Assembly (NCBI GenBank): GCA_041164325.1
Contig: JBEAPQ010000326.1
Span: 1 to 55,460 of the forward strand
Length of the DNA stretch: 55,460 bases
From: Planctomycetota bacterium
GTDB lineage: Bacteria > Planctomycetota > UBA1135 > UBA2386
Direction of reading: 5' to 3'
Part shown: positions 10,774 through 52,407 of the stretch, piece after piece
How the letters are laid out: the number at the start of each line of letters is the position of its first letter
How positions within the stretch are numbered: the stretch's first letter is position 1
Notes under the pieces: model-generated
What the model was told of the DNA's origin: nothing
The model's database searches: none
What the model saw: the letters and a program-made list of their open reading frames with translations, nothing else
Translations under genes and position numbers: made by a program

Positions 10774-10856
10774 GGCAGGTGGGTGCTGTCGGAGCTCGGC
10801 TTGCGGATGCGTCAGTGCGCGTGCGTTGATCGGCGGACGTCGCCGCGCAGATGCGT

Positions 10857-19561: not shown

Positions 19562-19597
19562 CCAACCGGCGACGGGCGCGACGATCGCGCGCTCGCC

Positions 19598-32167: not shown

Positions 32168-32177
32168 GGTTCGAGAA

Positions 32178-32205
32178 TTGACAACCCGACGGCTCCGCCT
32201 AGCTT
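32178..32205 (+). promoter_or_regulatory. Candidate sigma70-type promoter for the FHA/pseudopilus gene block
   Basis: TTGACA (32178-32183), a 16-nt spacer, then TAGCTT (32200-32205). It lies in the divergent rsmE/FHA spacer and implies a ~270-nt leader. This is pattern match only. Confidence 0.35.
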
Positions 32206-32484
32206 ACGACGCGTGCGCAGACGATTCCCGGGTTCAGCGGACGGCTTGCCCCAGCCTTCCGCGACGCTGCGGTCCCGACCGCGGCAGACCCGAGTCGCCC
32301 TGGCCGACCCGAGGTCGGGCAGTGTGCTGGGACAGACCCCGCTCGCACCGTGCCTTCGCGGCACGCGGGGCTGGCTCGGCACGCTCTCCGTTCCAGAGGT
32401 CGGCACCGTGCGCCGTGTGTCCTCGACGGGCCGCGGATTCGGTCGTGCCTTCGGACCACCGGGCGCAGAACCCCGAGAGACCCC

Positions 32485-34500
32485 ATGAACCGCTACGTCC
32501 TGGAAGTCCTGGACGGAGACCAGGCCGGCACTGTCGTCGAGCTGGGCGCCGAGCGCCTGGTCCTCGGCCGACGCCCCGATGCCGGTCTCGTCGTCCGTGA
32601 CGAGAAGTGTTCGGGCCATCACGCCGAGGTCGTCCTGGAGGACGGTCGCCACGTGCTGCGTGACCTCGGTTCGACGAACGGCACGTCGATGGACAACCGG
32701 CGCGTGACCGAGGTCGTCCTGTCGGCGGGAGACGTGTTCTCGCTCGGGCGGGTCCGGATCGTCTACCGCTCGGCCGAGGCGGCCGTTCGCGCGGCGGGCG
32801 CCGAAGACGGCGACCTCGCCGGGATGGCGCTCGGACGGGTCGACATGGACCGCCTCCGCTCCTCCGGGCGTCGCCGCGGTTCGCTCCTCGGGACGGCGCT
32901 CTTCGTCGCCGTGGTCGGGGCGGGCGGTTGGTACGCCCTGCAGGGGCAGTTCGGTGGCGAGCAGAGCCAAGGACCCAGCCAGCTGCGTCCGATGGTGATC
33001 CCGGGCAACAAGCTCGCGTCGGCCGCGGCCGACTTCGAGGCCGACGGCGGGTGGAACCTCCAAGGGCTCGACTTCGCCGCGCCGTTCGACCTTGCGACGG
33101 GCCGCGCGCGGGCGCACTCGGGCACGTCGGCGCTGGTCGCGGCCGGCTTCCCGGCCGAGGACGGCGTCGAGGCCCGCAACTTCGCGTTCGCGACGCTGGC
33201 GGAACCGATCCAGGTCAGCTCCGGACAGCCGCTCGAGGTCGTCGCCCACGTCCGCACGGCAGGAGCTGGCCGCGCGCTGGTCCGCGTCGCGTTCGAGATG
33301 GGTGAAGACGAGTCGGGCGCCGGTCCGGCCAAGATCCGCACCGGTTCGGCGCCGGTCGTCAGCACGGACGGCTACCAGGAGGTCCGCTTCGCGGTGCGGG
33401 CGCCCCGCGGGGCGGTCCGTGCGACCCTCGAGCTCTTCGCCTGGGTGCCGACCCCGGAGGACGAGGTCTACGTCGACGATGTCGCGGTGCTCGCGGCCGG
33501 CAACGGCGTCGCCGTCGAAGGTGTCGCCGGTGGCGCCACGCTGAACGGCGCCGGTGCCTCGGTCAGGCTGGACGAAGTCGAACTGCCGACGATCCTCGGC
33601 GTGCAGCCGATGATCGGCGACGACCCGATGCTCGGCGTCCTCGCGCGGCACGGCCTCCTCGTCCCGTCGGACGCGGGGCTGTCGCTCGCGGTCGAGACCC
33701 TCCCCGAGGGCGAGGGCTTCCGTCTGTCCTGGACCGGCGGTCCGGTCCGGGGGCTGGCCGTCGAAGTCCCGCCGGAGAGCGCCGACTGCCGGATTCGCGC
33801 GGGATCGGGCCCCTTCGAGCCCCGGGATCCTGACTTCGAGGCGTCCCCGGTCCGCCAGATCCTCTGTGGGACCGACGCGAACCGGGCGGTCCTGATCCCT
33901 TCGGGTGCCCAGTCGGTCCGCGGCATTCTCCGCCCCTCGAGCTGGACCCTGGAGTTCGCCGGCGCGACGTCCCTCGACGTCGAGGTCGCGTTCACCGACG
34001 AGACCGTGCAGGCCCGGGACCGCGCGCGGCAGGCCCGTTTCGCGGCGGACGAGGGGCGTGCGGCGGAGGCGCTGGCGCTCGTCGACAGCCTGGTCCAGGA
34101 ACTGCCGCACGACGCGGGCGCGCTCCGGGATGCGATGGCGGTCAAGGCGGAGGTGCTCGCCAACCAGGAGCGTGAGGTCGAGCGGTTGCTCCGCGACGCG
34201 GCCGAAGCCGAGTTCTTCGACGCGCGCGTCGGCTACCAGCGGATCGCCAGCGAGGTCCAGGCGCTGACCGCCCGCTATGGCGCGGACAACCTGATCCGTC
34301 GCGACGAGATCGAAGCGGCTGCGGCACGCATGGACGCTGGCATCGCCGTGCTCGACGTCCGCGAGGGACGCGAGCGCGCCGAGATGCTGGCGGTCCTCGC
34401 AGATGCGTTCGAACAGGTCGGGAACGGTGAGCTCGCGAAGTTCGTCCGGAACTACGTCGAGCGCCTGCCGAAGCCCGAGCCCGAGTCGGGAGACAAGTGA
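32485..34500 (+). CDS. FHA domain - single TM - extracytoplasmic jelly-roll (CBM4/9-like) - helical C-terminal region protein
   Basis: The ATG at 32485 gives MNRYVLEVLDGDQAGTVVELGAERLVLGRRPDAGLVVRDEKCSGHHAEV...LGSTNGTSMDNRRV, a typical FHA domain. The TM helix is LLGTALFVAVVGAGGWYAL. The beta-sandwich runs from NKLASAAADFEADGGWNLQG to EVYVDDVAVL. Confidence 0.85.
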   Translation: MNRYVLEVLDGDQAGTVVELGAERLVLGRRPDAGLVVRDEKCSGHHAEVVLEDGRHVLRDLGSTNGTSMDNRRVTEVVLSAGDVFSLGRVRIVYRSAEAAVRAAGAEDGDLAGMALGRVDMDRLRSSGRRRGSLLGTALFVAVVGAGGWYALQGQFGGEQSQGPSQLRPMVIPGNKLASAAADFEADGGWNLQGLDFAAPFDLATGRARAHSGTSALVAAGFPAEDGVEARNFAFATLAEPIQVSSGQPLEVVAHVRTAGAGRALVRVAFEMGEDESGAGPAKIRTGSAPVVSTDGYQEVRFAVRAPRGAVRATLELFAWVPTPEDEVYVDDVAVLAAGNGVAVEGVAGGATLNGAGASVRLDEVELPTILGVQPMIGDDPMLGVLARHGLLVPSDAGLSLAVETLPEGEGFRLSWTGGPVRGLAVEVPPESADCRIRAGSGPFEPRDPDFEASPVRQILCGTDANRAVLIPSGAQSVRGILRPSSWTLEFAGATSLDVEVAFTDETVQARDRARQARFAADEGRAAEALALVDSLVQELPHDAGALRDAMAVKAEVLANQEREVERLLRDAAEAEFFDARVGYQRIASEVQALTARYGADNLIRRDEIEAAAARMDAGIAVLDVREGRERAEMLAVLADAFEQVGNGELAKFVRNYVERLPKPEPESGDK

Positions 34501-34569
34501 CCGGTGGATTCTGACCGGATACCCCTGACCCGCACCCCAGATCGGACCCCAACACCGGAACGCTAGACC

Positions 34570-36213
34570 ATGGCCGGGAAAGCAACCGCGATCGACATCG
34601 GCTCGCACAGCACCAAGGTGCTGTCCCTCAAGGCCGGCAAGCACGGGCTGTCCCTGGCTCGCTTCCAGGCCTACCCGACCTCGGAAGGAGCGGGTGGCGC
34701 CTCCGGCATCTCCCTCAAGGGTGTGGTCGCAGGCCTCGCCGGGCGGGACATGACGCTGCGCTACACGCAGGTCCCCCCCTCGCCGGACTGGCAGCTCCGC
34801 AACCTCATGGAGCTCGAGATCCAGGACATGGCCGGTCAGAGCGGGGGTGACCTGTCGGCCGACTACAACCTCCTGCCGATCGAGGACGAAGAGGGCGGCA
34901 ACGACACGGTCCTGCTCGCGTTCGCGCGCAACGAGGCCCTCGATCGCGCCCACTCCGTCGTCCGCGCGGCCGGCGGCTCGGTCGACGCCCACGTGCCGAA
35001 CTGCATCGCGCTCTACAACGCGTTCGTGCGCTGCGGTCCGGTCGAGGAAGATGCGACGGTCTGCGTCGTGAACCTCGGCCGGGAGACGATCGACCTTGCG
35101 ATCGTCAAGGGCGTCGACCTCCTGTTCGTCCGCAACCTGTCGAGCGGTGGCAAGGTCTTCGACGACGCGATCGCCGCGGCGTTCGGCGTGTCGGAGCGAA
35201 AGGCCGAAGCCCTGAAGAAGGACCTGCTCGACCTCGATCCGTCGAGCCGCGGGCGCTACGCGTCGGGCCAGGCCGAGAAGGTCACGGTCGCGGCAGGGGG
35301 CGCTGGCAGCATGATCGCGTCGGCGATCCAGTCTTCGCTGGCGTTCTGCCGCAACCAGACGCACAACCCGTCGCTCCAGCTCGACAAGGTCCTCATCTGC
35401 GGCGGCACCGCCAAGGCGCGCGGCATCCGCGGGATGCTGCGCGAGGCGCTGCGCTGCCCGGTCGAGGCGTTCGATCCGTTCGAGACGGTCGACATCTCGA
35501 CGCTTCCCGAGGCCGACGTCGACGCGTTCGAGCGGCACAAGTCCGAGGCGGTCGTCGCGCTCGGGCTGGCCGCGGGCCGCGTGGACGGGAGCCTCTACCA
35601 GCTCGAGATCCTGCCGGAGGCCGTCAAGCGGCGCCGTCGTTTCGTCGAGCAGACGATCTGGAACATCGCGGCCGGTCTCGTGGTCGTGGCGCTCCTCGGA
35701 TTCACGGCCGCGACGCAGAGTTCCCAGGTCCAGGAGGCGGACGAGGCGTTCCGGACGCTGAGCCGGATCAAGTCGCGCGTCCAGACGACGCACGGCGACA
35801 CCGAGCGCTTGGTTGCCGCCAACGACCGGCTGCGCAAGGTCACGGACTTCGTCGCCGAGCGGGCGATCGCCCTCGATGGTGCGATCCTCGCGCTCCGCTC
35901 GCTGGGCAGCGCGATGCCCGAGGAGTTCTGGATGACCCGGTTCGAGGTCGCCTCGCGGGCGCTCGAGAACCGGCGCGGCTCCGCGCCGAAGCCGGTCGTT
36001 CTGGTCCAGGTGGCCGGGAAGGACGTGGCGGGTCGCGGGGTCGGAGACGCCTACACGCGTTTCCTCGCGGAGTTCAAACAGCAGGAGCACGACGGTGTGT
36101 CTCCGGCGATCAGCACGCAGCGCGGCGCGGACGCCGCGGGCAACGAGACTTTCACGTGGACGATCGACTACCGGCCGGAACAGGCCGGGGGCGACGTCCA
36201 GGAAGACAACTGA
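34570..36213 (+). CDS. PilM-PilN fusion (GspL-like): cytoplasmic actin-like ATPase-fold domain + TM + periplasmic domain
   Basis: 547 aa. The PilM-type start is KATAIDIGSHSTKVLSLK, with ...VVNLGRETIDLAIV and ...ICGGTAKARGI. This is followed by LEILPEAVKRRRRF, the TM helix IWNIAAGLVVVALLGFTAA and a coiled-coil/ferredoxin-like periplasmic part. Confidence 0.8.
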   Translation: MAGKATAIDIGSHSTKVLSLKAGKHGLSLARFQAYPTSEGAGGASGISLKGVVAGLAGRDMTLRYTQVPPSPDWQLRNLMELEIQDMAGQSGGDLSADYNLLPIEDEEGGNDTVLLAFARNEALDRAHSVVRAAGGSVDAHVPNCIALYNAFVRCGPVEEDATVCVVNLGRETIDLAIVKGVDLLFVRNLSSGGKVFDDAIAAAFGVSERKAEALKKDLLDLDPSSRGRYASGQAEKVTVAAGGAGSMIASAIQSSLAFCRNQTHNPSLQLDKVLICGGTAKARGIRGMLREALRCPVEAFDPFETVDISTLPEADVDAFERHKSEAVVALGLAAGRVDGSLYQLEILPEAVKRRRRFVEQTIWNIAAGLVVVALLGFTAATQSSQVQEADEAFRTLSRIKSRVQTTHGDTERLVAANDRLRKVTDFVAERAIALDGAILALRSLGSAMPEEFWMTRFEVASRALENRRGSAPKPVVLVQVAGKDVAGRGVGDAYTRFLAEFKQQEHDGVSPAISTQRGADAAGNETFTWTIDYRPEQAGGDVQEDN

Positions 36214-36228
36214 GGCGGAGGAGGAACC

Positions 36229-37068
36229 TTGGATCTCCAGGACTTCTGGCAGGAGAACAAGCGCTGGATCCTCGGCGTCTTCGCCGGGTTGATCGTCTAC
36301 TGGGTCGGCGGCGGCATCGTTTCCGCGGTCTTCGGCGGCGCTTCGGCGTCCGGCCGGGTCCTCGCGATGGCGCGCGACCTGCAGCGTGAGGAGTACTACG
36401 ACGCGCAGGCGCTGCGCACGGCCCGCGAAGAGAACGAGCGTCTGATGGCGCTCGTCGAACGGGTGCGCGCCCATGCGGCCTTCGTTCCCGACGACGAGTT
36501 CGTGCTGACCGGCAAGGGCGACCCGGACCTCTACTTCCCCGAGGTGGAACGCCGGGTCCGCTCGCGCCTCGTGGCCTACGCGCAGGAGCGTTCGGTGGCG
36601 ATCGACGAGCGCGATCTCGTGTGGCCCGCGGCCGTTTCGCGCGAAGAGAAGGAACAGACGCTGGTCGGGCTCTGCGCGCTGCAGCACGCGGCGATCCGGC
36701 TCGTGGATGCCGGCGAGCTCGTGCGCCAAGAAGTCGCGGACGCCGTCGGACTGCAGTCGATCGAGTCCCTGCAGATCGAGAAGCGCGTCGGCTCGTCGTC
36801 GAGTCGGCGCGGGCGCCGCACGGCGGACAGCGAGATCGCCGGGCTCGTCGACGAGTACCGCGTCAAGTTCCGGTTCCGCGCCGACACCGCCACGCTCCAG
36901 GCGTGGCTCGAGAAGCTCCGCGCGGAGTCGCCGTCGATCGGGCTGGCTCCGGAGCTCCGCGTGACCCCGGGGGACCAGGTCGGCGACCCGGTCCTCGTCC
37001 AGGGCTCGCTCGCGGCCCTCGTGATTCGTGATCTCACCGCTACGGACAGCGCCAACCAGGACGGCTGA
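36229..37068 (+). CDS. PilO/GspM-like bitopic inner-membrane assembly protein
   Basis: 279 aa. The TTG start follows GGAGGAGGA. The N-terminal TM helix is WILGVFAGLIVYWVGGGIVSAVF, then a coiled coil and an alpha/beta C-terminal domain. The assignment rests on architecture and position, not on strong motifs. Confidence 0.6.
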   Translation: MDLQDFWQENKRWILGVFAGLIVYWVGGGIVSAVFGGASASGRVLAMARDLQREEYYDAQALRTAREENERLMALVERVRAHAAFVPDDEFVLTGKGDPDLYFPEVERRVRSRLVAYAQERSVAIDERDLVWPAAVSREEKEQTLVGLCALQHAAIRLVDAGELVRQEVADAVGLQSIESLQIEKRVGSSSSRRGRRTADSEIAGLVDEYRVKFRFRADTATLQAWLEKLRAESPSIGLAPELRVTPGDQVGDPVLVQGSLAALVIRDLTATDSANQDG

Positions 37069-37073
37069 ACTCC

Positions 37074-39734
37074 ATGAACATCCGCAAGGAGCCCGCCCTC
37101 TTCGTCGTGGTCGCCGCGCTGGCGGCCTGGATCTGGTCCGGGCAGTCCACGCAGCGCCTCCCGCGCTCGGCCAACACGCGCTCCATGGAGCTCGAAGCCG
37201 CCGCCGACCCGGCCGTCGTCCTCGCGGACCTCGCCGGTCGTGAAGCGGCCGCGAGCGGTCGGGACCTGTTCCGCGAGCCGACCGAGGCCACTCCGCTCCC
37301 GCCGCGCGACCTGCCGTTCCCGCCACTCGTCGCGCTGCCGGTCGTCGCGATGCCGCTGTCGCCCGGCCAGGACGCCGGTGCCTGGTACCAGCTGCGGATC
37401 GACGGGGGCGACCCGACGCCGCACGAGTTCGCGGCGCCGGCCGCGTCCGCCGGCGGCAACGAGTCGGGCGACCTCGGTCCCGGAGGCGGCGAGTCCGACC
37501 AGGGCCTCCCGGACGAGGTGATGATCGAGCGCTTCGATCGGATCTGGCTGGTCGGTGGGGGGCGTCCGTTCTTCGGCAACATCCTCCACCAGGACAAGCT
37601 GTCGCTGCCCCCGGGCGGCCCTTTCCTCGAGACGGTCCGGTTCGAGAGCGTGTCGCGCCAGACCGGCCGCGTCAGCGGGACGCTCGAGTTCGAGCCCGCG
37701 AAGGTCGAACGGATCGCGTTCGCGGAGAGCCTCGAGAACGCGATCGCGCTGCGGAAGCGGGACCTGCCGACCGGGCCTGCCGGGCTCGTGCCGCGCGAGG
37801 AGTTCCTGCGCTTCCTGCTCGATGCCGCGCGCGAGCGCGAGTGGGTGTGGAAGGAGGCGGAGGAGCAGGCCGCGGCCATCTTCGCGGTCGCTCCCGACGA
37901 GGGCTACCGCGCGAAGCTGCGCGTCCAGCGCGCCAAGGGTGACCTGGCCGCCGAGCTCGCGATCTTCCAGGACCTGCCGACGGACCTCGCGGACAGCGCG
38001 GCACGTTGGCGTGAGCAGGGAAGCTTCGAGGCGCGCCTCGGCCTGCCGAAGGACGCCGAGGAGCACCTCCGCCTCGCGGTGACGAAGGGGCCGACCGACG
38101 CCCGTTCGAACGCGGCTCTCGCCGAGTTCCTCCTCGCGCGCGGGCGCAGCGAAGAGGCCGTGCCCTTCGCGGAGGCCGCCGCGCGCAGCGCGGCCCAGGT
38201 CACGGACGAAGGCGACCGTTTCGACGTGATCCGCACGTGGGTCGCCGCGCTGCTCGCCGTCGGGCGTGTCGAGGATGCCCAGCTGGCGGTGACCCGCGCG
38301 ACGACCGGGCCTGGTGCCGAGCAGGCCTACCTGCGGGGTGCGGTCCACTACGCGAGCGGCGAACTCGAGCAGGCGGTGACGCAGTTCGAGAAGGCGGCCG
38401 ACGAGCTGCCGCGCCTCGACGCGGTGCTCGGTCTCGGCGCCTGCGCGCTCCGGGAGGGTCGCTTCGACGAGGCGCGCCAGCTCTTCGAGCGCGTCCGGGA
38501 CGAAGCGCCGGCCCTCCGTGGACGCGCGCTCGCCGGTCTGGGGCTCTTGTACGAGCGGACCGGGCACGCCGCCGAGTCGGCCGAGGCCCTGACGGCGGCC
38601 GAAGCCGCGGCGCCCCGCGATCCGTACGTCCTCTACCTGCTCGGTCGGCGCCAGCGCCTCGACGGCCAGCTGGAGGATGCGGTGACCACCGAGCGGCGCG
38701 CGCTGGCCGAACGGGACGAACTCGTCGAAGCGCTCGCCGAGATCGCGCGCGCCCAGCTGGCGCGGGTCGACGCGGCCGACGGTGACGCCGCGGAGATCCT
38801 GGCCCGGACGGTCCGCTACGTGGATCGTCTCGTCGGCCTCGACCAGGCACGCGGTCGCCACGTGCCCTTCCTCGAACTCCAGGGCTACGTGCTGGCCCGG
38901 ATCGGGGATGTCGCCCAGGCGCGGCGCGCCTTCGCGGCGGGCTACGAAGCGCAGAGCAGCTTCTGTGAGGTCGGTCTGGCGCTCCTCGACTACCGGCAGA
39001 AGCGGGTCGGTGACGCGCGGCAGAAGCTCGCGCAGCTCTCGGCGGACCCGAGCCGGGGCGGTGAGATCCGCGAGTTCGCGCGGGCGACCGTCGACCTGAT
39101 CGACGACCACGCGAGCAAGGAGCTGGTCCGGGACACGTTCGACCGTGACGTGCTCGGCGATCTCTGGACGCGCATCGGATCGCTCGCGCCCGTGCTGCGC
39201 GACCAGCAGCTGACCTTCCGCGGTCAGAGTGGGCGCGTCGGGGAGGATTCAGCGGTGCGCCGCGTGGTCCGCGCCGGCGACTTCCTCCGCTGCGAGGTCC
39301 GGATGGACATCCTCGGCGACCTCGGAACGACCGAGTTCGCGGGCCTGCGCCTCACGCCCGAGACGCAGCGTGGCGGCAGCTTCCAGGTCGAGCTCGGCCT
39401 CAAGAGCTACGGTGCCAACCGGCAGCCCGAACTCCGCCTCGTCGATGGTCCGCCCGCCCGCGAGGACTCGGTGACGGTCAAGCCCCTCGACGTCGAGGTC
39501 GGCGTCGGCCAGCCCGTCGTCCTCGCCGTCGAGTTCGTGCAGGCGATCGATGCGAGCGACAAGAGCCTGACGCTGCGCGTGCTCTGGAACGGTGAGGTCG
39601 TCGACGAGCGTCCGATCAAGACGCTGCGCTCGAACTCCGCCCAGCCGCTGGCGACCGACTTCGTGGTCCGCGGTCGCCCTGTCCACGTCCGCTTCGACGA
39701 CTACCGGCTCGAGCGCCGGAAGGAGACCCGATGA
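37074..39734 (+). CDS. Large bitopic TPR-repeat protein with a C-terminal beta-sandwich domain
   Basis: 886 aa with N-terminal TM helix ALFVVVAALAAWIW, a Pro-rich linker and many TPR-like helical repeats (for example AEFLLARGRSEEAVPFAEAAA and YLLGRRQRLDGQLEDAV). The C-terminal ~200 aa are beta-rich and end in VHVRFDDYRLERR. Confidence 0.75.
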   Translation: MNIRKEPALFVVVAALAAWIWSGQSTQRLPRSANTRSMELEAAADPAVVLADLAGREAAASGRDLFREPTEATPLPPRDLPFPPLVALPVVAMPLSPGQDAGAWYQLRIDGGDPTPHEFAAPAASAGGNESGDLGPGGGESDQGLPDEVMIERFDRIWLVGGGRPFFGNILHQDKLSLPPGGPFLETVRFESVSRQTGRVSGTLEFEPAKVERIAFAESLENAIALRKRDLPTGPAGLVPREEFLRFLLDAAREREWVWKEAEEQAAAIFAVAPDEGYRAKLRVQRAKGDLAAELAIFQDLPTDLADSAARWREQGSFEARLGLPKDAEEHLRLAVTKGPTDARSNAALAEFLLARGRSEEAVPFAEAAARSAAQVTDEGDRFDVIRTWVAALLAVGRVEDAQLAVTRATTGPGAEQAYLRGAVHYASGELEQAVTQFEKAADELPRLDAVLGLGACALREGRFDEARQLFERVRDEAPALRGRALAGLGLLYERTGHAAESAEALTAAEAAAPRDPYVLYLLGRRQRLDGQLEDAVTTERRALAERDELVEALAEIARAQLARVDAADGDAAEILARTVRYVDRLVGLDQARGRHVPFLELQGYVLARIGDVAQARRAFAAGYEAQSSFCEVGLALLDYRQKRVGDARQKLAQLSADPSRGGEIREFARATVDLIDDHASKELVRDTFDRDVLGDLWTRIGSLAPVLRDQQLTFRGQSGRVGEDSAVRRVVRAGDFLRCEVRMDILGDLGTTEFAGLRLTPETQRGGSFQVELGLKSYGANRQPELRLVDGPPAREDSVTVKPLDVEVGVGQPVVLAVEFVQAIDASDKSLTLRVLWNGEVVDERPIKTLRSNSAQPLATDFVVRGRPVHVRFDDYRLERRKETR

Positions 39735-40417: not shown

Positions 40418-40421
40418 CGCG

Positions 40422-44400: not shown

Positions 44401-46717
44401 AGCCTGGACGGGGGACATCGACCTCGGCAACCCCGAGGTCATCGTCGGAGGATCGGTGCCGCCGCCCGCAGACGAGCAGATCGCGGCCGGTTTCCCGCAG
44501 TCGGGGGGCTACGCGATCCTCGTCCAGCGCCGTCTCAGCATCCGGCTCGTGTCGAACAACCCAGGCCAGCTCGCGACGACCCCGGAGATCGGCGGCGTCG
44601 AGGTCATCCGCTACGCGTCGCGGACCGGCACGACGCTGAAGAACATCCAGCGGGCGGTCCAGCTGCCGGTCAACTTCGTCACCGACCAGAACGGCTTCTT
44701 CGTCCCGCAGCAGCCGCGGAACTTCGTCGTCGACTGGTCCGAGACGATGGTCGTCCGCGACCCGAACGCGGGCGAGGTCGTCCCGTTCGACGAACTGCCT
44801 CTCTACATGCTGTTCGTCGTGCCGATCTCGGTGCCGTTCAACGGCACGCTCGACGACGACCCCGAGTTCATCAACTGGCTGCAGATCCGCACCGAGGGCG
44901 GAGACGACGCCGACACCGAGTGGGTCCGCTACAACGCGATCATGGATCGCCAGCACGCGGTCCGCGCCGATCAGGCGGCGTTCGAACTCGTCCGGTTCCG
45001 GCTGACGCAGCAGACCTCTCTCCAGCAGCTCGGCGTGACGACGGGTGGGCTCGATCCGAACCAGGTCACGCTCCTCCGCGATCCGTGGGCGCCGCCGACC
45101 GACGACGGGCGGAGGCGGATCGGCTACATCGACCCCATCGAGATCCGCTATCCGGCGATCCACGAGGCCCGTCGTGCGCTGGGCTTCCGCGGGGACCCGT
45201 TCACGGGCACGTCGAGCCACCCGCAGCCGGCGAACGCCCAGGTCCTGCCCGTGCACCGCTTCGAGTTCGACTGGCCCGGCTACGGACTCGGCACGCCCCG
45301 CGCAGGTCGCGGAGACCGCGTTGCGCTGATCCCGGGGTCCGCCCGTCAGGACGGCGAGGTGCCGGGCGTCGAGTGGCACACCGTGAACTGGTCGGTGCGT
45401 CACTACGAGTGGGACCAGGTCCAGGCCGACGCGTCGGGCACCCAGAACCGCGTCGAACCGCGCCAGCGCCGCGGCGACTGGCCGTTCCAGCTGGTGGCGT
45501 TCCAGGCGCCGATCCGCAGTGGGATCTTCATCGGTGAGGGCACGTCGAGTCGGGGCGAGGAGAACCGGCTGGACACCCGGTTCCTCGATCGGATGGTCAA
45601 GTTCCCGAGCGGGGAGCTGCCGGCGGGCGATCCGGACGAGGCCTGGTTCGGTGCGCCCGTCCACGCCGACGGGGCGCCCTCGCGGGGGCTGCTCGACGAG
45701 GTCACGTACGTCGCGCGCCGCGCGCAGCCGCGTCCGCTCGACCAGCAGCTGACGGAGAACGCGAACTCGTTCTTCGTCCGACCCAACGTCATCCTGACGC
45801 CGGCTGGTCCGCTCGTGAACCTCCGACCGCGGCAGGCCGACAACTGGGGCGACGAGTCGTTCCCGCGCCAGGGAGGTCTCCTCGCGATCGACGGCGAGAT
45901 CCTGGCCTACGACCAGTACGACCCGCAGAGCGGTGAAGTGCGGATCGCGCCCGAGGGGCGTGGCCTGCTCAACACCGTGGTGCGCGCGCACGACGAGGGG
46001 GCGGTCGTCCAGTTCCTCGAGCACATCCCGGCCGCGATCCTGACCAACAGCCTGTCCAACCAGGACGACACGATCGCGGTCCAGTCGCTCGGCGGTCTGC
46101 CGCGCGGGGGAGGGACGGTGCTCCTGGGCACCGAGCTGCTCCACTACACGTGGACGCGCGGAGACGTCGAACTCGGGATGCCGCGCTTCTTCGATCCCGA
46201 CCAGGGGAGGCGTTCGTCGCAGGGCATGTTCCGCGGGCGCTACGGCACGAACCCGGCGTCCGCGTCCTCCGGTTCGGTCGCGATCTACTTCCCGTTCCGC
46301 TACTGGGATCGCTACTTCCCGCAGGCGGACGACCCGGAGTCGGCGTTCTGCCAGGTCTCGATGGCCGATGGTCCGGTCTGGTTCGACCGCTTCGGCTGGC
46401 GGGAAGACCAGGAGGACGCGACGGTCGGGGTGCAGTGCCTCGTGCGGATCGACGAGCGTGCGCCGTTCACGGCCGACCCGGAGACCACGGACGGACTGTG
46501 GCTGTGGGAGGAAGGCGAGGTCGGCGGTTTCCCGCACCGCGTGCGGCGTTTCGGCGAGCGCTTCGAAGCCCGGTTCGAGCACGTCTACCGGCCTGGTGCG
46601 TTCGACCCGATCCTGTTCCGCGCGAACTCGTGGAAGCGTGCCCCTTCGATCCGGGAGTTCGTGCTGACCTACGAAGGCGAGACGCGCGTCCTCGAGGAGA
46701 AGGTGACGGCCCGATGA
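41441..46717 (+). CDS. Giant (1758 aa) GspK-like minor pseudopilin with an internal LamG domain and repeated beta-modules
   Basis: The reading frame is uninterrupted with normal composition throughout. The N-terminus ESGLALVAVLVALGVLLAMAAPFL is GspK-style, with no Glu at +5. Two GspK-type HhH-like motifs are present: RIDLHSATPLVLANLLGL and VNINTAAPEVLTALF. The LamG core runs VSFWLRLDD...GTWYHITASAVGNRPGQLSFVVDGV. Both the start and the stop overlap neighbouring genes (ATGA). Confidence 0.85.
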   Translation: MMQRRAAESGLALVAVLVALGVLLAMAAPFLLSMGHGDAASRARVDEVHADWGSASARDALLQTAASGASAFDPSPNADGRDEYPGTLELPAGFEGITSTPGGRTVLQGSVEDLSRRIDLHSATPLVLANLLGLAVRVRGEVELDAAEIPVDGPLDAFPESGYLICQREVIRYEGRDGSRFFGLTRGAFAELGFLPAQLLPDHKLDEDALVMDFRCVLAVTWPFRGYGDPGRYVPYGSVAELQRIQEGGFPGFEAREIEALARFTTTVALHDRSARFGKGERVFEILSDELQQPRILQVKSNLGLGPGRVVRIRSLDGQWVEYGLVWDTIGRGNRGTYNLSSRQYVALLQPLSMPFVPVDTVVEPLVQVPVNINTAAPEVLTALFAHARRQVSGANREDGATRLPPVIRRRDAANLATQMTMLRGDDAELVEAFDRDENRPSGFGNVDMTPRPFDGFEDLAQRFVPMILGAGASDSMDQRRLVLGVYDALQIGCPGSMEQGTMPVAFRSSPLVGYRASASRRRFSGLEAARREREGVALALPGDQLFWGGATQEALDEAFRLDRRTPFWQTWPINTSAVPNGQQDMVPPLRTSAHLLATLFPNAGFGEPRFADRSGTEAELRPQPGVAPIGYGGNLVGHDAFMTARHPEGRVLATEGPYRASNVGPRMAGVSEPSGQRDHSRVSFPMTTIGGVSSRHAVSFWLRLDDTGPQVLYDEASVGEAPERNRYLVEIRDGMLTYEVRDDAGLDPDAAASPYAPNPSSAIWQAPLESLDLVQGTWYHITASAVGNRPGQLSFVVDGVPRGEPRMRTYTTAEIPVYQEDRGVPTFLADSDRFITIQVEDASDFPQRGVLRIGGELFEYSARDDGAFYCRYDDSVGGRRARATMREFAINVPENGEGDPRQDLLAIVNGDLEAVVPNHPSGSAVELYGYAIPVYPRRILIPGGARLTDSLGAFSIARAVNRAGINPITIDVANRNPILIGEGFDEAWTGDIDLGNPEVIVGGSVPPPADEQIAAGFPQSGGYAILVQRRLSIRLVSNNPGQLATTPEIGGVEVIRYASRTGTTLKNIQRAVQLPVNFVTDQNGFFVPQQPRNFVVDWSETMVVRDPNAGEVVPFDELPLYMLFVVPISVPFNGTLDDDPEFINWLQIRTEGGDDADTEWVRYNAIMDRQHAVRADQAAFELVRFRLTQQTSLQQLGVTTGGLDPNQVTLLRDPWAPPTDDGRRRIGYIDPIEIRYPAIHEARRALGFRGDPFTGTSSHPQPANAQVLPVHRFEFDWPGYGLGTPRAGRGDRVALIPGSARQDGEVPGVEWHTVNWSVRHYEWDQVQADASGTQNRVEPRQRRGDWPFQLVAFQAPIRSGIFIGEGTSSRGEENRLDTRFLDRMVKFPSGELPAGDPDEAWFGAPVHADGAPSRGLLDEVTYVARRAQPRPLDQQLTENANSFFVRPNVILTPAGPLVNLRPRQADNWGDESFPRQGGLLAIDGEILAYDQYDPQSGEVRIAPEGRGLLNTVVRAHDEGAVVQFLEHIPAAILTNSLSNQDDTIAVQSLGGLPRGGGTVLLGTELLHYTWTRGDVELGMPRFFDPDQGRRSSQGMFRGRYGTNPASASSGSVAIYFPFRYWDRYFPQADDPESAFCQVSMADGPVWFDRFGWREDQEDATVGVQCLVRIDERAPFTADPETTDGLWLWEEGEVGGFPHRVRRFGERFEARFEHVYRPGAFDPILFRANSWKRAPSIREFVLTYEGETRVLEEKVTAR

Positions 46718-47892
46718 CCGGCACCTCGCAAACGGTGCGGCGACGTGACGCGGGGTTCACGCTCCTCGAGCTCGTCGTGGCGATGGGCCTCCTGTCGGGC
46801 TTCCTGCTGATGCTGGTGCGGCTGCTGACGACCGGTGCAGACCTCTTCGACGAAGGAGAGCGGGGCCAGGAGCTGCTCGACCGCTCGGCGTCGGCTGTGC
46901 GCGTCGCGCAGCGTGCGCTGCACGACACGTGTGGTCCGCGCCTCCTCGGGCGTCCCGACGGGCGGACCGACGCGCGGCTCCTCGTGCACACGATCCCGAC
47001 CGGGGCGGGCGAGGGGGCTTCCCGCGTCCAGCTGCTCCGCTCGACCGAGAATCTCGATCCGGCGGTCGAGGATCGCATCCTCCGGGCCGCGTTCGAGGCC
47101 GAGGCGGCCGCCGAAGGCCTCCGCGACGCCGAAGCCGAGCGCGCGATCGCCGAAAGACTCGCGAGCTGGCCGCGCTCCGGCCGCGGCGAGCTCCAGCTCT
47201 TCCCGTGGCCGGTCGGCGACGACGGCGTCTACTTCGAGCTGCGCCGGCGGGACCTGCCGTCCGACCCGCTGCTCTACCCGGCCGAAGAGATCCCGGTCCT
47301 CGACATCCGGGACCCGGAAGATCTCGGCGTGGACTTCGAGCGGCTCCTGCTCGGATCGCGGACCGTGGCGCGCGGCCTGCTGCACTTCGAACTCCGCTTC
47401 TGGTCGCAGCGCACGCGGACTTGGCAGCTCGTCGGCACCGAAGGCCCGGAGCGTGTCTGGGACTCGACCCGCGGTGGGCTGATGCTCGGCGAGACCGAGG
47501 GCTCCGACGTGTTCGGCCTCGACTTCGGGCCGTCGAGCTTCGCGGACACGCGGGATGACATCTGGCCGCGCTGGGTCCGTGTCGTCGTGACGGTCGACGC
47601 GGGGCCGCAGACGCCGCCCGCATCGTTCCTGACGCAGGCCGTCACCGACGCGGACACGAGTCTCCAGGTGACCCGCCCCGAGGACATCCCCGACCCTGCG
47701 GACCAACCGTTCCTGAAGATCGGCGCCGAGTGGGTGCGCTTCCAGGGCGTCGTCGGCCGGACGCTGACCGGGGTGCGGCGCGGGCAGCGCGGCACGAAGG
47801 CCGTCGCGCACCCGGCCGGCACCTCCGTCCGCGCGGGGCGTGAGGCGGTGTTGGACGTGCAGATCCCACACGGGAGGGACGGCGATGACTGA
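46714..47892 (+). CDS. GspJ-like minor pseudopilin (enlarged, 392 aa)
   Basis: Prepilin N-terminus DAGFTLLELVVAMGLLSGFLLML. The body includes LLHFELRFWSQRT...WDSTRG...DDIWPRWVRVVVTV, which looks GspJ-like. The C-terminal module is FLKIGAEWVRFQGVVGRTLTGVRRGQRGTKAVAHPAGTSV. Confidence 0.7.
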   Translation: MTGTSQTVRRRDAGFTLLELVVAMGLLSGFLLMLVRLLTTGADLFDEGERGQELLDRSASAVRVAQRALHDTCGPRLLGRPDGRTDARLLVHTIPTGAGEGASRVQLLRSTENLDPAVEDRILRAAFEAEAAAEGLRDAEAERAIAERLASWPRSGRGELQLFPWPVGDDGVYFELRRRDLPSDPLLYPAEEIPVLDIRDPEDLGVDFERLLLGSRTVARGLLHFELRFWSQRTRTWQLVGTEGPERVWDSTRGGLMLGETEGSDVFGLDFGPSSFADTRDDIWPRWVRVVVTVDAGPQTPPASFLTQAVTDADTSLQVTRPEDIPDPADQPFLKIGAEWVRFQGVVGRTLTGVRRGQRGTKAVAHPAGTSVRAGREAVLDVQIPHGRDGDD

Positions 47893-48409
47893 ACACGGCC
47901 CTTGCTCACGGAAGCAGGCGTTCGGACGCGACGAGTCCGGCTTCACGCTGCTCGAACTGATCGTGGCGCTCGGCATCCTCGTGTTCGGCGCGACGTCGCT
48001 GATCGGGGCCTTGAGCCTCGGCGTCGGGTCCCGACGCGGGACCGAGATGCGCGCACGCGCCTCGCTGCTCGCGGATCAGGTCCTGCTCCACGTCGAGCGG
48101 GAGCTGCTGGGGCGGCACGGCATCCCGTCCGGCTGGCAGTCCGCCGAAGAGCTGGCGATCCCACCCGAGGGCGTCGACGTGGTCGACGGATTCCCGGGCA
48201 TGCGGTATGCCGTCTCGTTCGAGACCAGTCCGGAGCGTCCGGACATCGTGCTGGCGACCGTGACGGTCGGCTGGCGTGACCAAGGTGAGGACGATGGCGT
48301 GGTCTTCCAACGCATCGTGCCGCGGGCGGTGCCGCTGTCGCAGCGGATCAACCAGCGTCGCGAAGCGGCCGACGCGCGCACCCAGGAGTCGCGGAGGAGT
48401 TCTCGATGA
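47885..48409 (+). CDS. GspI-like minor pseudopilin
   Basis: The ATG at 47885 overlaps the previous gene by 8 nt. Prepilin N-terminus ESGFTLLELIVALGILVFGATSL, small body with ATVTVGWRDQGEDDGVVFQRIV. Confidence 0.7.
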   Translation: MTEHGPCSRKQAFGRDESGFTLLELIVALGILVFGATSLIGALSLGVGSRRGTEMRARASLLADQVLLHVERELLGRHGIPSGWQSAEELAIPPEGVDVVDGFPGMRYAVSFETSPERPDIVLATVTVGWRDQGEDDGVVFQRIVPRAVPLSQRINQRREAADARTQESRRSSR

Positions 48410-49920
48410 TGAAAGGCAGTCCCATGTCCTTCCTGCGTTCCCTGTCTGCACGGCGCGCAGCCGTCGCGCTCAGCCTCTTCTTCGGCCTGTGCGCGCTCCT
48501 GCCAGCCCAGGCGATCCAGCTTCGGACCGGCGAAGTGCTGGTCGGAGAGGTCGTCGACGCGACCAGTGAGGGGCTGTCGTTCCGGCGGCTCGACACGGGC
48601 GGCTTCCTGGAGCTCGGCTGGAACGACCTGTCGACGCTGCACGCGGCCCGGATCAAGCGCCTGAAGGGTCTGGTGGTCGCCGACGACGATGAGCCGACCC
48701 TGGTTGCCGACGTCGTGCTCTACGTCGTGGGGGGCGTGGCGCGCGACGAGGTCGTCGGCCTGATCCAGGAGTACACGAAGACGCACGTCCTGCTGAAGCG
48801 GAAGGGCGACGTGCTGCCGATCAAGCGCGAGGCGATCCTGCGGACGCGGAAGCGCGAGGTCCCGGTCCTCGAGGTCTACACCGGCGAGGAGTACTACCAG
48901 CTGAAGCTCGCCGACACCGAGCCGGGCGAAGACGCGGACCGTCACATCGCGCTCGGCGAAGAAATGCGTCGGGTCGGTGACTTCGCGCACGCCGAGGAGC
49001 ACCTGACCAAGGCCGACGAACTCGGCGGAGGGCGTCAAGCGTCCCAGCTGCCGATCATGCTCCAGCGCGTCCGCACGCTGCGAGAGGCCGAGGCCGAGCG
49101 CGAGCTCTTGGCGCAGATCCGCATCATGCGGAACCGGAAGGAGTTCTCGCGCGCCGAGGAGCTGATGGGAGAGTTCCGGCAGACCTACCCGGACTCGCGT
49201 CTGCTCGCCGAACTCGACCGGGAGGAGGAGCGCTTCGAGGAGGCGCTCGCCGACTACGCCGTCGAGCGGCTCCGGCAGGCGTGGGACCAGACCGTGCGCC
49301 GCGTCTCGGATGACAAGGTCCGTGACGACAGCGTGACGTTGGCGGCGGCGCGAGCCTACGCGGAGGACAAGATGTCCGACGACGTGTTCGGCCGCATCGC
49401 ACGGAGCCTGGAGCTCGAGCCCGAGGCCGTGGAGAAGTACTGGACCGAGCGCGAGTCGCACGGACGCGGTCGCTCCGTCGTCTACTCCTACGGCGTTGGC
49501 TCGTGGGTCCTCGGTGCCGACAAGATCATCGCTGGCACCAAGGCCGAGGGCGGTGGTGCGGGTCCGGCCGGCGGCGGCGGCGATCAGGATCCGGAGCTCG
49601 ACCGGATCATCCGCAAGCTGCGCGACCTGCAGAACCAGCAGCGCCGCGCGGGCGGTGCGGGCGGCGCGGGCGCGCCGCGCGAGGAGTCGGAGGAGGACTG
49701 GTGGCGCAAGGCCTCCCGCAACGACCGGGCGGGTTGGCTCCGGGCCTACTTCGCGGAATTCGGTGGTCACATGGAGATCACCGCTGCCTATTCGAACCCG
49801 TGTCCGAACTGCGAAGCGAGCGGCACGATCTCCGTACTCGGTGACTCCGGTCGGGAGCAGAAGCTCAAGTGCCCCATCTGCCACGGCACCAAGTTCACGC
49901 GGCTGTTCCGCGCGCGCTGA
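48406..49920 (+). CDS. Secreted protein: SH3-like N-terminal repeats, helical/TPR-like middle, Gly-rich linker, C-terminal CxxC...CxxC zinc ribbon
   Basis: 504 aa with signal peptide AAVALSLFFGLCALLPAQA and C-terminus NPCPNCEASGT...KCPICHGTKFTRL, which resembles the DnaJ CR motif. The ATG overlaps the previous stop (ATGA) and follows GGAGGAG. Confidence 0.75.
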   Translation: MMKGSPMSFLRSLSARRAAVALSLFFGLCALLPAQAIQLRTGEVLVGEVVDATSEGLSFRRLDTGGFLELGWNDLSTLHAARIKRLKGLVVADDDEPTLVADVVLYVVGGVARDEVVGLIQEYTKTHVLLKRKGDVLPIKREAILRTRKREVPVLEVYTGEEYYQLKLADTEPGEDADRHIALGEEMRRVGDFAHAEEHLTKADELGGGRQASQLPIMLQRVRTLREAEAERELLAQIRIMRNRKEFSRAEELMGEFRQTYPDSRLLAELDREEERFEEALADYAVERLRQAWDQTVRRVSDDKVRDDSVTLAAARAYAEDKMSDDVFGRIARSLELEPEAVEKYWTERESHGRGRSVVYSYGVGSWVLGADKIIAGTKAEGGGAGPAGGGGDQDPELDRIIRKLRDLQNQQRRAGGAGGAGAPREESEEDWWRKASRNDRAGWLRAYFAEFGGHMEITAAYSNPCPNCEASGTISVLGDSGREQKLKCPICHGTKFTRLFRAR

Positions 49921-50906
49921 TCGCCGGCCTCTTCGGTCTGCTGGCGGGGTGCGCGGCGCCGCGTCCGGTGTCCCGCGCCCCGGCTGTGCCGAGGCCGGAA
50001 GCCCCGCGGGTCGAGCTCGTGCCGCCGGCTCCGGCGTGGCAGTCCCCCGCGGGGGCGGCGTCCGCCGCCGAGGGCTCGGAGCTCCTCGCGCCCGCACGCC
50101 GTGGCGACGACGTCGTGGCCACGGTCGGAGCGGTGGAGCTCCGCAAGAGTGACGTCTACGACCGTCTCGTCGATGGGGACCCGCAGACGGCGAGGCTCTG
50201 GCTCGACCTGGTCGTTCTCGACGCGGTCATCGCGGACTTCGCCCAGCGGCTCGGCGTCGTGGTCGACGAGGCGGACGTCGAGGACGTGGCCCGGGATGCC
50301 GAAGCGATGCTCCGGACCCAGGTCGAAGTCGAGTACGACGGGCGGCGGAGTTTCGCGGACTACCTCGCCGCGGAGTTCGGCATCGACGAGTCGGGCTACG
50401 CGCGACTCCTGCGCGACGACCTGTTGCGGGCGCGCTACCGGGGTCTCGTGATCCGGTATCTCGCGCTCCGCGAGGAGCGCGCCGAGATCCGGCTGATCGT
50501 CCATCCCGACCAGGGAGTGCTCGAGGACGCGCGCGCCCGGGTCGAGGCCGGCGCGGACTTCGCGGCGCTCGCCCGCCAGTTCTCGGAGGACGCGACGCGC
50601 ACCGAGGGGGGGCGGCTCGGGCCGTTCGACCGCGGGTTCCGGCACCCGGTCGCGCAGATCGCCTTCGAGCTGGAGCCCGGTGAGGTGTCTGCGGTGCTGT
50701 CTTTCGAGGACCGCGGCGTGGCCCGTCGCGCGCTCGTCTACTGCCTCGCCCGTCATCCGGCGCGGGACGCGTCCTTCGCCGCCATGCGTGCCGAGATCGA
50801 GGCCGATCTGGAGGCTCGACCGATCAGCGCGCTGGAGCAGGGAGCGTTCGTAGCTCGCTACTGTCGCTCGGGTTCCGCGCTTGACAGTGCTGCGGGGGAC
50901 CGGTGA
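49869..50906 (+). CDS. Lipoprotein peptidyl-prolyl isomerase (PpiC/parvulin type)
   Basis: Lipobox LFGLLAGC, then the parvulin motif ADFAALARQFSEDATRTEGGRLGPFDRG...LEPGEVSAVL. The GTG at 49869 is the only in-frame start before the signal peptide, and it overlaps the upstream gene by 52 nt. Confidence 0.75.
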   Translation: MPHLPRHQVHAAVPRALIAGLFGLLAGCAAPRPVSRAPAVPRPEAPRVELVPPAPAWQSPAGAASAAEGSELLAPARRGDDVVATVGAVELRKSDVYDRLVDGDPQTARLWLDLVVLDAVIADFAQRLGVVVDEADVEDVARDAEAMLRTQVEVEYDGRRSFADYLAAEFGIDESGYARLLRDDLLRARYRGLVIRYLALREERAEIRLIVHPDQGVLEDARARVEAGADFAALARQFSEDATRTEGGRLGPFDRGFRHPVAQIAFELEPGEVSAVLSFEDRGVARRALVYCLARHPARDASFAAMRAEIEADLEARPISALEQGAFVARYCRSGSALDSAAGDR

Positions 50907-50918
50907 CATGGGCCGTCC

Positions 50919-52329: not shown

Positions 52330-52407
52330 GTCCCGTTCGTCTAGCCCGGCCTAGGACACCAGGTTTTCATCCTGGTAACAGGGGTTCGAATCCCCTACGG
52401 GATACCA
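52330..52407 (+). tRNA. tRNA-Glu (anticodon TTC), CCA encoded
   Basis: GTCCCGTTCGTCTAGCCCGGCCTAGGACACCAGGTTTTCATCCTGGTAACAGGGGTTCGAATCCCCTACGGGATACCA folds as a cloverleaf. The anticodon stem is CCAGG/CCTGG with loop TTTTCAT, the T arm is AGGGG-TTCGAAT-CCCCT, and the acceptor is GTCCCGT/ACGGGAT. It is close to the bacterial tRNA-Glu consensus. Confidence 0.93.

Follow-up and report, generated by a model that had tools for sequence, protein, structure and literature searches.

Type IV filaments are, to our knowledge, classified and understood almost wholly from Proteobacteria, Firmicutes, Thermus and archaea. Type IVa pili have their pilMNOPQ, pilBCD and pilT/U genes and their minor-pilin operon at separate loci, as in Pseudomonas and Myxococcus, whereas clustering with the motor genes is typical of type II secretion systems (T2SS) only, whose genes normally stand beside gspD/E/F. 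Here we describe an eleven-gene operon in a 55,460-nucleotide stretch of DNA from a Planctomycetota bacterium (GenBank assembly GCA_041164325.1, contig JBEAPQ010000326.1), which we refer to in its entirety as the window. The balance of the evidence tips slightly toward a reading in which the operon encodes the filament subunits and the inner-membrane and periplasmic scaffold of a lineage-specific type IV filament machine of the type IV pilus (T4P)/T2SS class.

All eleven open reading frames (ORFs), named g01 to g11, lie on the plus strand and span positions 32485-50906, where their tight packing gives the layout of a single operon (Table 1). Because the G+C content is about 70%, raw ORF lists are crowded with long spurious antisense frames, and real genes were therefore chosen by G+C at third codon positions (GC3). 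The operon ORFs share a high-GC3 coding signature (0.85-0.92), and the G+C content of the operon is uniform with that of its flanks, at ~70% throughout the window. The eleven plus-strand genes claimed in an earlier note on this DNA were confirmed in this way. The junctions that it quoted are all exact, with gaps of 69, 15, 5 and 4 nt, and the ATGA stop/start overlaps at 39731, 41441, 46714 and 48406, the 8-nt overlap at 47885-47892 and the 52-nt overlap at 49869-49920 were each verified in the DNA. Its block start at 32178 is wrong, as this is a TTG in another frame. The true start of g01 is the ATG at 32485, from which the protein begins MNRYVLEVLDGD, in agreement with the invariant N-terminus of 30 orthologues. 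The start of g11 is uncertain (49869 or a GTG at 49905), and its overlap with g10 persists under either choice. Most operon starts are preceded by a Shine-Dalgarno-like GGAGG, and a search for terminator-like hairpins in 32000-51999 found none (0 seen versus 4.3 expected in shuffles). Since each of the 11 products has a predicted transmembrane segment (TM) or export signal, all are predicted to be envelope proteins.

Two features of this region can mislead annotation. Antisense ORFs of 1745 codons (32089-37326, minus strand) and 1723 codons (41411-46582, minus strand) lie opposite the operon and lack the coding GC3 pattern. They are artefacts of 70% G+C and a trap for gene calling based on ORF length. 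Likewise, ARAGORN reports a 97-nt tRNA-Thr(CGT) at 33561-33657 (minus strand) within the g01 coding region, which has no Rfam support at gathering score and is probably a false positive from G+C-rich sequence. A real tRNA-Glu(TTC) is located at 52330-52407.

Table 1. Genes of the operon and its immediate neighbours in the window.
Feature	Coordinates	Strand	Length (aa)	Description and basis
rsmE	31391..32167	-		Methyltrans_RNA 127.9 bits; divergent upstream neighbour, chromosomal context, outside the machine
rsmE/g01 divergent intergenic region	32168..32484	.		Presumed promoter region; three CGGCAC repeats
g01	32485..34500	+	671	FHA-TM-periplasmic beta-rich domain-C-terminal helical (TPR-like) region; Pfam, PDB profile
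g02	34570..36213	+	547	PilM (actin-like)-TM-predicted PilN/PilO-like periplasmic domain, GspL-type architecture; PilM_2, AlphaFold2 (AF2) model
g03	36229..37068	+	279	Bitopic protein in PilO/GspM position; TM 17-35, predicted periplasmic remainder
g04	37074..39734	+	886	N-terminally anchored; Pro-rich segment, TPR array, ~200-aa C-terminal region; TPR families
g05	39731..40417	+	228	Major (pseudo)pilin candidate, GspG-like; N_methyl, motif G↓FTLIELLVV including Glu5
g06	40422..41444	+	340	Prepilin-type with LamG domain, GspH/FimU position; N_methyl, Laminin_G_3
g07	41441..46717	+	1758	Giant K-type minor-pilin-like protein; Glu5-less helix, helix-hairpin-helix motif, LamG, five modules
g08	46714..47892	+	392	Prepilin-type, GspJ/PilW position; N_methyl, beta-barrel module at residues 325-376
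g09	47885..48409	+	174	Small prepilin-type, GspI/PilV position; N_methyl, N-terminal GspI/XpsI matches
g10	48406..49920	+	504	Sec-secreted, TPR motifs and C-terminal DnaJ-type zinc finger (2 x CxxCxGxG); signal peptide ends AQA
g11	49869..50906	+	345	Parvulin-type peptidyl-prolyl isomerase (PPIase) lipoprotein; Rotamase 35.9 bits versus cut-off 21.7, lipobox LLAGC
scpB	50919..52196	+		SMC_ScpB 150 bits; downstream neighbour, not counted as part of the machine

One line of evidence that places this operon in the type IV filament superfamily comes from its subunit genes. Class III (prepilin) signal peptides of the form G↓F/M-x-x-x-E, each followed by a hydrophobic helix, are present in g05, g06, g08 and g09, and all four proteins exceed the Pfam N_methyl cut-off of 21.2 bits (29.0, 28.3, 22.9 and 26.1, respectively). 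Glu5 is invariant in the orthologue alignments of each of them. The major subunit candidate g05 matches pilins and GspG in PDB profile searches (E 1e-13 over the N-terminal helix), with a weak match to the GspG C-terminal part, and the GspG model TIGR01710 aligns to its N-terminus with E 2e-8 (34.3 versus a cut-off of 88.85). It has a single Cys, and thus no disulfide pair, and conserved acidic motifs (NTDGD and SAGPDxxFxTDDD). In g06, Laminin_G_3 scores 26.2 bits, slightly below its cut-off of 27.6, and the N-terminus matches the NCBIfam GspH model (E 3.7e-7, 30.3 versus 80). The same protein matches Verru_Chthon cassette protein D (E 9e-6). The scores against this cassette (TIGR02596 and related models, proteins A-D) remain under the cut-offs, at 18.9 for g05 and 25.9 for g06 against 70 for protein D. 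PDB profiles pair g08 with pilin N-termini, including that of Thermus TTHA1219. The GspJ model does not match g08, and its sole match is a weak one to the N-terminus of g05 (17.7 versus 64.85). The N-terminal ~50 residues of g09 match XpsI (E 4.9e-6) and GspI (E 1.8e-3, 18.7 versus 44.35), both below cut-off.

These results bear on the subunit names that the earlier note had given. GspG for g05 holds with respect to the N-terminal helix and the acidic C-terminal motif but does not reach the equivalog cut-off, and the LamG-pseudopilin g06 has its prepilin motif above threshold with the lectin-like domain just under it. The designations GspJ-like (g08) and GspI-like (g09) are justified for the prepilin N-termini, but J-specific support is absent for the former, and the GspI/XpsI matches of the latter are sub-threshold and confined to ~50 residues. 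A complete G/H/I/J/K set, as had been claimed, therefore overstates the case, because no T2SS equivalog is reached at cut-off, and what identifies J and I is in essence their size and place in the gene order.

The most interesting feature of the operon is the fifth subunit, g07, a 1758-residue candidate K-type protein built from phage-fibre-like modules. Its N-terminus (...ESG↓LALVAVLVALGVLL, with G↓LALVAVLVAL at the cleavage site) is pilin-like with Glu5 absent, a combination by which GspK/PilX-type subunits are recognized. A GspK helix-hairpin-helix motif at residues ~368-385 (PVNINTA..EVL.AL) matches the start of Pfam T2SSK (PF03934). This family is found in 19 of the 23 g07 orthologues with a best E of 8.7e-5, all below the gathering score, and scores 15.4 versus 24.2 on the g07 of the window. 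The top PDB profile match is P. aeruginosa XcpX/GspK (5vtm, E 0.019), and a search of NCBIfam returned no match. A LamG-like domain occupies residues ~680-740, and Laminin_G_3 rises above its cut-off in more distant family members. The AF2 model of residues 1-640 has a mean predicted local distance difference test score (pLDDT) of 72.5, a predicted TM-score (pTM) of 0.73 and a helix at residues 7-68.

An iterated profile reveals a beta-barrel module of ~50 residues that occurs in five copies in g07 (residues 157-189, 845-873, 1052-1073, 1474-1524 and 1553-1613) and once at the C-terminus of g08 (residues 325-376, window positions 47686-47841). The module has the motif G..L.IG.E.I.Y....G..L.G..RG..GT.A..H..G..V. 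Indeed, alignment of the g08 C-terminus with the first g07 module by hhalign gives a probability of 93% (E 2.8e-7). At E<=1e-3, the model of g07 residues 1-640 has 40 Foldseek matches to virion structural proteins, including those of phage baseplates and tail fibres. Many of the matched proteins are unnamed, and some superimpose at <1 A over ~54 residues with 33-38% identity. The Pfam family Rcc01698_C (gene transfer agent/phage-J-like) also matches the g07 family weakly. Against the PDB, the same model has only insignificant beta-barrel matches, namely domain II of EF-Tu and of IF2. A HMMER search with the N-terminal 640 residues matches 1201 representative clusters (50% identity) at E<=1e-3, at least 331 of them at E<=1e-30, and the best 150 of these 1201 matches in the representative library are all close relatives. 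Thus, the g07 family is sizeable and currently without annotation.

The C-terminus of g07 is conserved through its final Arg. Large minor-pilin-like and tip proteins have been described in which a middle insert is followed by an extreme C-terminal strand that completes the K-type sheet; GspK and CpaL provide this last beta-strand in cis, and PilY1 provides it in trans (PMC13533445). This tip-licensing model fits g07 well, by analogy. Similar to CpaL/TadG of the Tad pilus and MshQ of the mannose-sensitive haemagglutinin pilus, g07 begins like a pilin and is conserved at its C-terminus up to the last residue, and on this analogy its C-terminus would fold back. In contrast to CpaL, g07 is three times the size and contains LamG and phage-fibre-like modules with no von Willebrand factor A-type domain. 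TadZ, RcpA and Flp of the Tad pilus are likewise not present in the operon.

A second line of evidence comes from the scaffold protein g02. This protein supplies a PilM/GspL-type actin-like component, with PilM_2 at 75.9 bits versus a cut-off of 27, matches in 31/31 orthologues and a TM at residues 363-381. FtsA and MreB families also match, and PilM_2 is the best among them. In a profile search with g02, the best 120 matches are all orthologues and do not link it to other phyla. In the AF2 model of residues 336-547 (pLDDT 89.9), a long TM/coiled-coil helix leads into a beta-beta-alpha-beta-beta arrangement. The model's top Foldseek match by probability is the P. aeruginosa PilO core (5uvr, prob 0.92, TMt 0.51), which ranks fourth by E-value (0.08). 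At the level of topology, the model supports a predicted PilN/PilO-like fold for this C-terminal half. Pfam PilN matches 1/31 orthologues (E 0.07). The PilM-PilN fusion proposed earlier is thus solid in its PilM half, whereas the PilN-like half is consistent with the model topology. GspL of the T2SS has the same architecture, with an actin-like domain in the cytoplasm, a TM and a ferredoxin-like domain in the periplasm.

Among NCBIfam models, g02 scores best with the PilM-like Amuc_1101 family (NF045709; 119.9 bits, E 1.5e-34, cut-off 650), and it is homologous to this family without being a member of it. Amuc_1101 belongs to the pili-like Akkermansia muciniphila cluster Amuc_1098-1102, which comes from the same Planctomycetes-Verrucomicrobia-Chlamydiae (PVC) superphylum and also lacks an ATPase (PMC5332112). 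The match spans ~400 residues and includes the region beyond PilM. The Akkermansia cluster differs in having an adjacent secretin, Amuc_1098, and its description mentions no prepilin-type subunits, giant subunit, FHA protein or TPR protein (PMC5332112).

Every complete locus retains the next gene, g03. Searches of Pfam, NCBIfam and PDB profiles gave no match for the window protein, T2SSM_b matches 2/31 orthologues (E 0.019), and hhalign of g03 with g02 found nothing (0.4% probability). Its earlier designation as PilO/GspM-like has no profile support, and topology and position are what recommend it.

The first and fourth genes add components of a different kind. The product of g01 matches Pfam FHA (57.6 bits) and Yop-YscD_cpl (57.2 bits), with FHA found in 31/31 orthologues, and PDB profiles identify FHA domains of the GarA/FhaA type (E 1e-15) ahead of a single TM at residues 134-152. 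The periplasmic domain has weak matches to carbohydrate-binding module (CBM)-like and fibre-like structures. Thus, in the earlier description of g01 as an FHA-TM-jelly-roll protein, the FHA domain and TM were borne out but the jelly-roll was not, beyond such matches. An FHA-TM component is not canonical in T4P or T2SS. The order of N-terminal cytoplasmic FHA domain, one TM and periplasmic domain is the same in type III secretion YscD/PrgH, type VI secretion Fha1/TagH and Myxococcus GltG, but homology to these FHA-gated envelope machines is limited to the FHA domain of g01, and its periplasmic part is unrelated to theirs. A Ser/Thr protein kinase gene (18030-19169, Pkinase 157 bits), followed by a HEAT-repeat/VWA protein gene (19562-22186), lies 13 kb upstream of the operon. 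The phospho-threonine that the g01 FHA domain would read could come from this kinase. As for g04, many TPR families match 30/30 orthologues, the ~200-aa C-terminal region is unassigned, and NCBIfam gives weak matches to the PilW and Tgl TPR lipoproteins. At residues ~60-100 of g04, the motif EPSETxPLPPRxLPFPPxxPLPVVAxPL is nearly invariant among 30 orthologues, and this proline-rich segment may span the periplasm or bind a partner.

The last two genes encode predicted accessory factors. In g10, residues C466, C469, C489 and C492 are invariant, and PDB profiles match consensus TPR proteins (E 4e-7) and, weakly, the zinc modules of Ydj1 and UvrA, which makes it a candidate periplasmic chaperone. 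The secreted zinc-ribbon protein of the earlier note was borne out by the signal peptide and two zinc-finger repeats, to which TPR motifs can be added. So was the lipoprotein PPIase g11, by a Rotamase score above cut-off and a lipobox.

Whether this gene order recurs in relatives was examined by scanning a single genome for each GTDB species, in which 226 stretches encode a relative of the giant protein. Of these, 80 loci were kept, all from metagenome-assembled genomes (MAGs) and nearly all labelled Planctomycetota, with a few carrying other or generic labels. Some of the carrier sequences are long, with two chromosomes of 8.07 and 7.19 Mb and three contigs of 6.6, 4.1 and 3.4 Mb among them. 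When window proteins were searched by tblastn, the gene order proved colinear in 82/82 distinct related loci, so that it does recur as the earlier note had wondered, and all eleven genes were detectable in order in 49 of the 82. Among these complete loci, identities range from ~25% to ~70%, and 41 loci have a divergent rsmE upstream, 45 have scpB downstream and 38 have both flanks. These flanking genes, named in the earlier note, were confirmed by Pfam and are conserved in relatives. Distant relatives, in which the giant protein has 23-27% identity, retain a nine-gene core of FHA protein, PilM-like protein, one or two small bitopic proteins, TPR protein, G-like pilin, another pseudopilin, giant protein and two further subunits. 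This distant variant is without g10 and g11 and is found in another neighbourhood, not beside scpB. Thus, the operon is real, vertically inherited and autonomous in a large uncultured group of Planctomycetota. In the most distant variant (L005, 1-2870; L086, 1-2867), the first gene encodes two FHA domains and is preceded by a gene for an FHA-GAF-sigma54 activator, and an additional gene of 127-128 aa is located ahead of the TPR gene.

What the operon lacks is a motor. Pfam scans of the GC3-supported ORFs, a few of which matched no family, revealed no type IV filament ATPase, platform, secretin or prepilin peptidase in the window, which confirms the absence reported earlier. A six-frame search for a GspE/PilB-type Walker A motif found none in the window and 87 loci (1.83 Mb, with up to 10 kb of flank per side of each locus), and Secretin, T2SSE, T2SSF and peptidase A24 are absent from the precomputed Pfam lists of seven related loci. 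Linkage to gspC/D/E/F was accordingly not found in the window or in related loci, as judged from the Pfam lists of seven and the Walker A search in 87. The earlier note took the missing engine as unusual. This was not borne out, because type IVa pilus loci are normally split and a missing motor alone is therefore unremarkable. Partners encoded in trans are to be expected, because five prepilin-type subunits cannot mature without a prepilin peptidase, and the motor is probably encoded elsewhere in the carrier genomes. Cultured planctomycetes of another class carry PilB, PilC, PilD, PilQ and PilT (PMC7397252). The unusual features of the operon are its accessory composition and its giant K-type subunit, rather than a missing engine.

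Comparison with the type IVa pilus (PilMNOPQ and FimU-PilVWX-PilY1 of Pseudomonas and Myxococcus) reveals likeness as well as difference. Both have PilM with bitopic partners, which in the operon are candidates for the PilN/PilO type, a TPR protein (compare PilF, PilW and Tgl), four to five minor-pilin-type subunits including one Glu5-less subunit, in the operon a candidate K/PilX-type, and, if g07 acts as we suppose, a large tip adhesin, and in both these genes are apart from the motor genes. The operon differs in that its PilM is fused to the PilN-like part, the locus contains no PilP or PilQ, and PilN and PilO are undetectable by sequence. Moreover, the K-type subunit carries its adhesin in cis with no separate PilY1, the major subunit is GspG-like, and the FHA-TM protein, the zinc-finger/TPR protein and the PPIase are additions. 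The PilO position is followed by the large TPR protein g04, and no product in the operon matches a Secretin or PilY1 family. Judged by its sequence, the operon resembles a T4P/T2SS-class module and falls below the membership cut-offs of every named family tried.

These observations suggest how the machine might be assembled. A prepilin peptidase encoded in trans would mature the five subunits g05-g09. The I-type g09 and J-type g08 would pair with the K-type g07 to form a priming complex, and the H-type, LamG-containing g06 would link this complex to the g05 polymer. With its lectin and phage-tail-fibre-like insert in cis, g07 may form the filament tip as an adhesin or substrate-capturing head, analogous to PilY1/PilC acting in trans in type IVa pili and to CpaL/TadG in Tad pili. 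Polymerization could be driven by a trans-encoded PilB/GspE-type ATPase and PilC/GspF platform docking on g02-g03. As extra scaffold, g01 and g04 would join this platform, and phospho-threonine binding by g01 could make assembly responsive to Ser/Thr phosphorylation. In the periplasm, g10 and g11 may fold or escort the giant subunit. Because of the giant modular tip, we prefer a pilus for adhesion or capture outside the cell to a secretion piston in the periplasm, and the GspG-like character of g05 keeps a T2SS-like reading alive. The earlier proposal of a divergent T2SS/T4P-class module with its engine elsewhere agrees with the prepilin motifs, PilM and the T2SSK motif, and the location of that engine is the part that we infer.

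Several points weigh against a type IV filament machine. No filament has been observed, and the group has no cultured member. The assignments of K, J, I, H and G are all under curated family cut-offs, no relationship of g03 to PilO or GspM could be detected, and a Foldseek search of the PDB with the N-terminal model of g07 matched none of the solved GspK or PilX structures significantly. No motor, platform, peptidase or secretin was found in the window, in the Pfam lists of seven related loci or, for the ATPase, in 87 loci with flanks of at most 10 kb. Finally, with regard to a surface pilus in particular, the major subunit g05 is more similar to T2SS pseudopilins than to surface pilins.

A narrower form of the filament reading, which we put forward tentatively as possible rather than probable, is that the operon defines a hitherto unrecognized, Planctomycetota-restricted type IV filament sub-class. 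Such a filament would use a K-type pilin in the adhesin role of PilY1, an FHA-gated platform of PilM-N, g03 and TPR protein, and its own periplasmic chaperones of the zinc-finger and PPIase types. Its tip head would comprise 1,700-1,900 aa of lectin and phage-tail-fibre-type modules, one of which is common to the J-type subunit.

The last objection above leads to the alternative that survives best, although we regard it as unlikely. The operon could encode a true T2SS pseudopilus with a GspL/M-like platform, in which a short pseudopilus in the periplasm drives folded exoproteins through a secretin, gspD/E/F/O occupy another locus and the giant K subunit binds substrates, not surfaces. The likeness to T2SS is substantial, as the major subunit is G-like (by TIGR01710 over the N-terminus, by the acidic C-terminal motif and by the lack of a disulfide), H/I/J/K-type positions are occupied, the GspK helix-hairpin-helix motif is present, below threshold, in g07, the PilM-PilN fusion of g02 mimics GspL, and weak GspH and GspI/XpsI matches are found in g06 and g09. 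However, no Gsp equivalog reaches its cut-off. The actin-like domain of g02 matches PilM_2 rather than T2SSL and g03 has no family, so that membership in GspL/GspM is not indicated for either. The order of subunit genes is G-H-K-J-I rather than the G-H-I-J-K of T2SS, and g07 is about five times larger than GspK. The genes gspC, D, E, F and O are unlinked, whereas gspD/E/F are normally clustered in T2SS, and they never appear within the <=10-kb flanks of the 87 loci. Furthermore, a tip of this size with lectin and phage-fibre modules seems ill-suited to a piston working under a secretin.

The strict vertical conservation of the operon in a housekeeping neighbourhood, from rsmE to scpB, might instead point to a static, motor-independent envelope complex, where non-polymerizing prepilin-like proteins act as a housekeeping tether or glycan-binding scaffold. 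Planctomycetota carry many prepilin-like proteins whose role is unclear, no motor is near the operon in any genome sampled, and LamG domains in g06 and g07 together with the CBM-like matches in g01 would suit glycan binding. We consider this improbable, because the invariance of Glu5 in the four canonical subunits and its absence only from the K-type subunit is the pattern of a polymerizing filament, and because PilM with a PilN/PilO-like partner represents parts of an assembly platform.

Still less credible is a cell-division or chromosome-segregation apparatus, in which the adjacent scpB would act jointly with an actin of the FtsA/PilM type and an FHA regulator. The matches of g02 to FtsA and MreB, the resemblance of the g01 FHA domain to FhaB/FipA and the conserved position of scpB 12 nt downstream recommend it. 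Nevertheless, the FtsA equivalog on g02 is far below its cut-off and PilM_2 scores best, the five pilin-like subunits have no place in division, and the distant variant is not beside scpB. An artefact of the window or assembly, with a canonical gspCDEF(O) set contiguous in the real genome, can be dismissed: the window is a whole 55,460-bp MAG contig, so this single genome cannot decide the matter, but the gene tables of the 3.4- and 4.1-Mb contigs have the same housekeeping flanks, the 6.6-, 7.2- and 8.1-Mb contigs or chromosomes likewise carry the operon between rsmE and scpB, and no GspE-type Walker A motif lies near any of the 87 loci, by which this possibility, raised in the earlier note, fails.

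In the region between rsmE and g01, the three CGGCAC repeats read gcGGCACgcgg, tcGGCACgctc and tcGGCACcgtg. A scan of 32000-51999 found no sigma-70-like site within 32168-32484. A sigma-54 -24/-12 element was sought there because of the FHA-GAF-sigma54 activator gene that precedes the distant variant, and inspection by eye gave no convincing one. Rfam searches found no riboswitch or leader. At the other end, scpB starts 12 nt after g11 and may, from this spacing, be co-transcribed with the operon. The encoded ScpB has 425 aa, with the ScpB domain only at residues 261-417, and its N-terminal ~260 residues are acidic, Ala/Glu/Asp-rich and of low complexity; annotated orthologues have 166-410 aa. 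Pfam-scanned neighbours in the window are housekeeping genes, including MacB-type ABC transporter genes, lysS, trmB, Hsp70 and isc genes, genes for a SurA-like PPIase, a Clp-type ATPase, the Ser/Thr kinase and the HEAT-VWA protein, and glnS, topA, recQ, radC, rsmE, scpB and resB. Among these, the minus-strand genes at 6279-11495, which encode an Rrf2/IscR-like regulator, an IscS-like desulfurase, NifU/IscU, an IscA-like protein and Hsp70 (HscA/DnaK-like), form an iron-sulfur cluster assembly cluster.

Literature searches revealed no description of the operon, and thus no named and characterized system with this exact gene order. Its composition and giant K-type subunit are undescribed, while the principle, that of the superfamily of type IV filaments, is known. 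The operon is therefore surprising in its details and does not establish a new principle. It adds three families at present without annotation, namely those of g03, g07 and g10. The giant subunit offers a natural test of how K-type subunits are licensed by a C-terminal strand in cis, here across an insert of ~1,600 residues, and, if our reading of it is true, it would show phage tail-fibre modules put to new use in the tip of a bacterial pilus. The FHA-TM protein g01 would tie filament assembly to Ser/Thr phosphorylation. For the organisms themselves, a large branch of Planctomycetota with no cultured member, the operon represents a filament module passed on by vertical descent, and, should the narrower reading of a restricted sub-class be true, the filament could be a glycan- or particle-capturing fibre of these uncultured planctomycetes.

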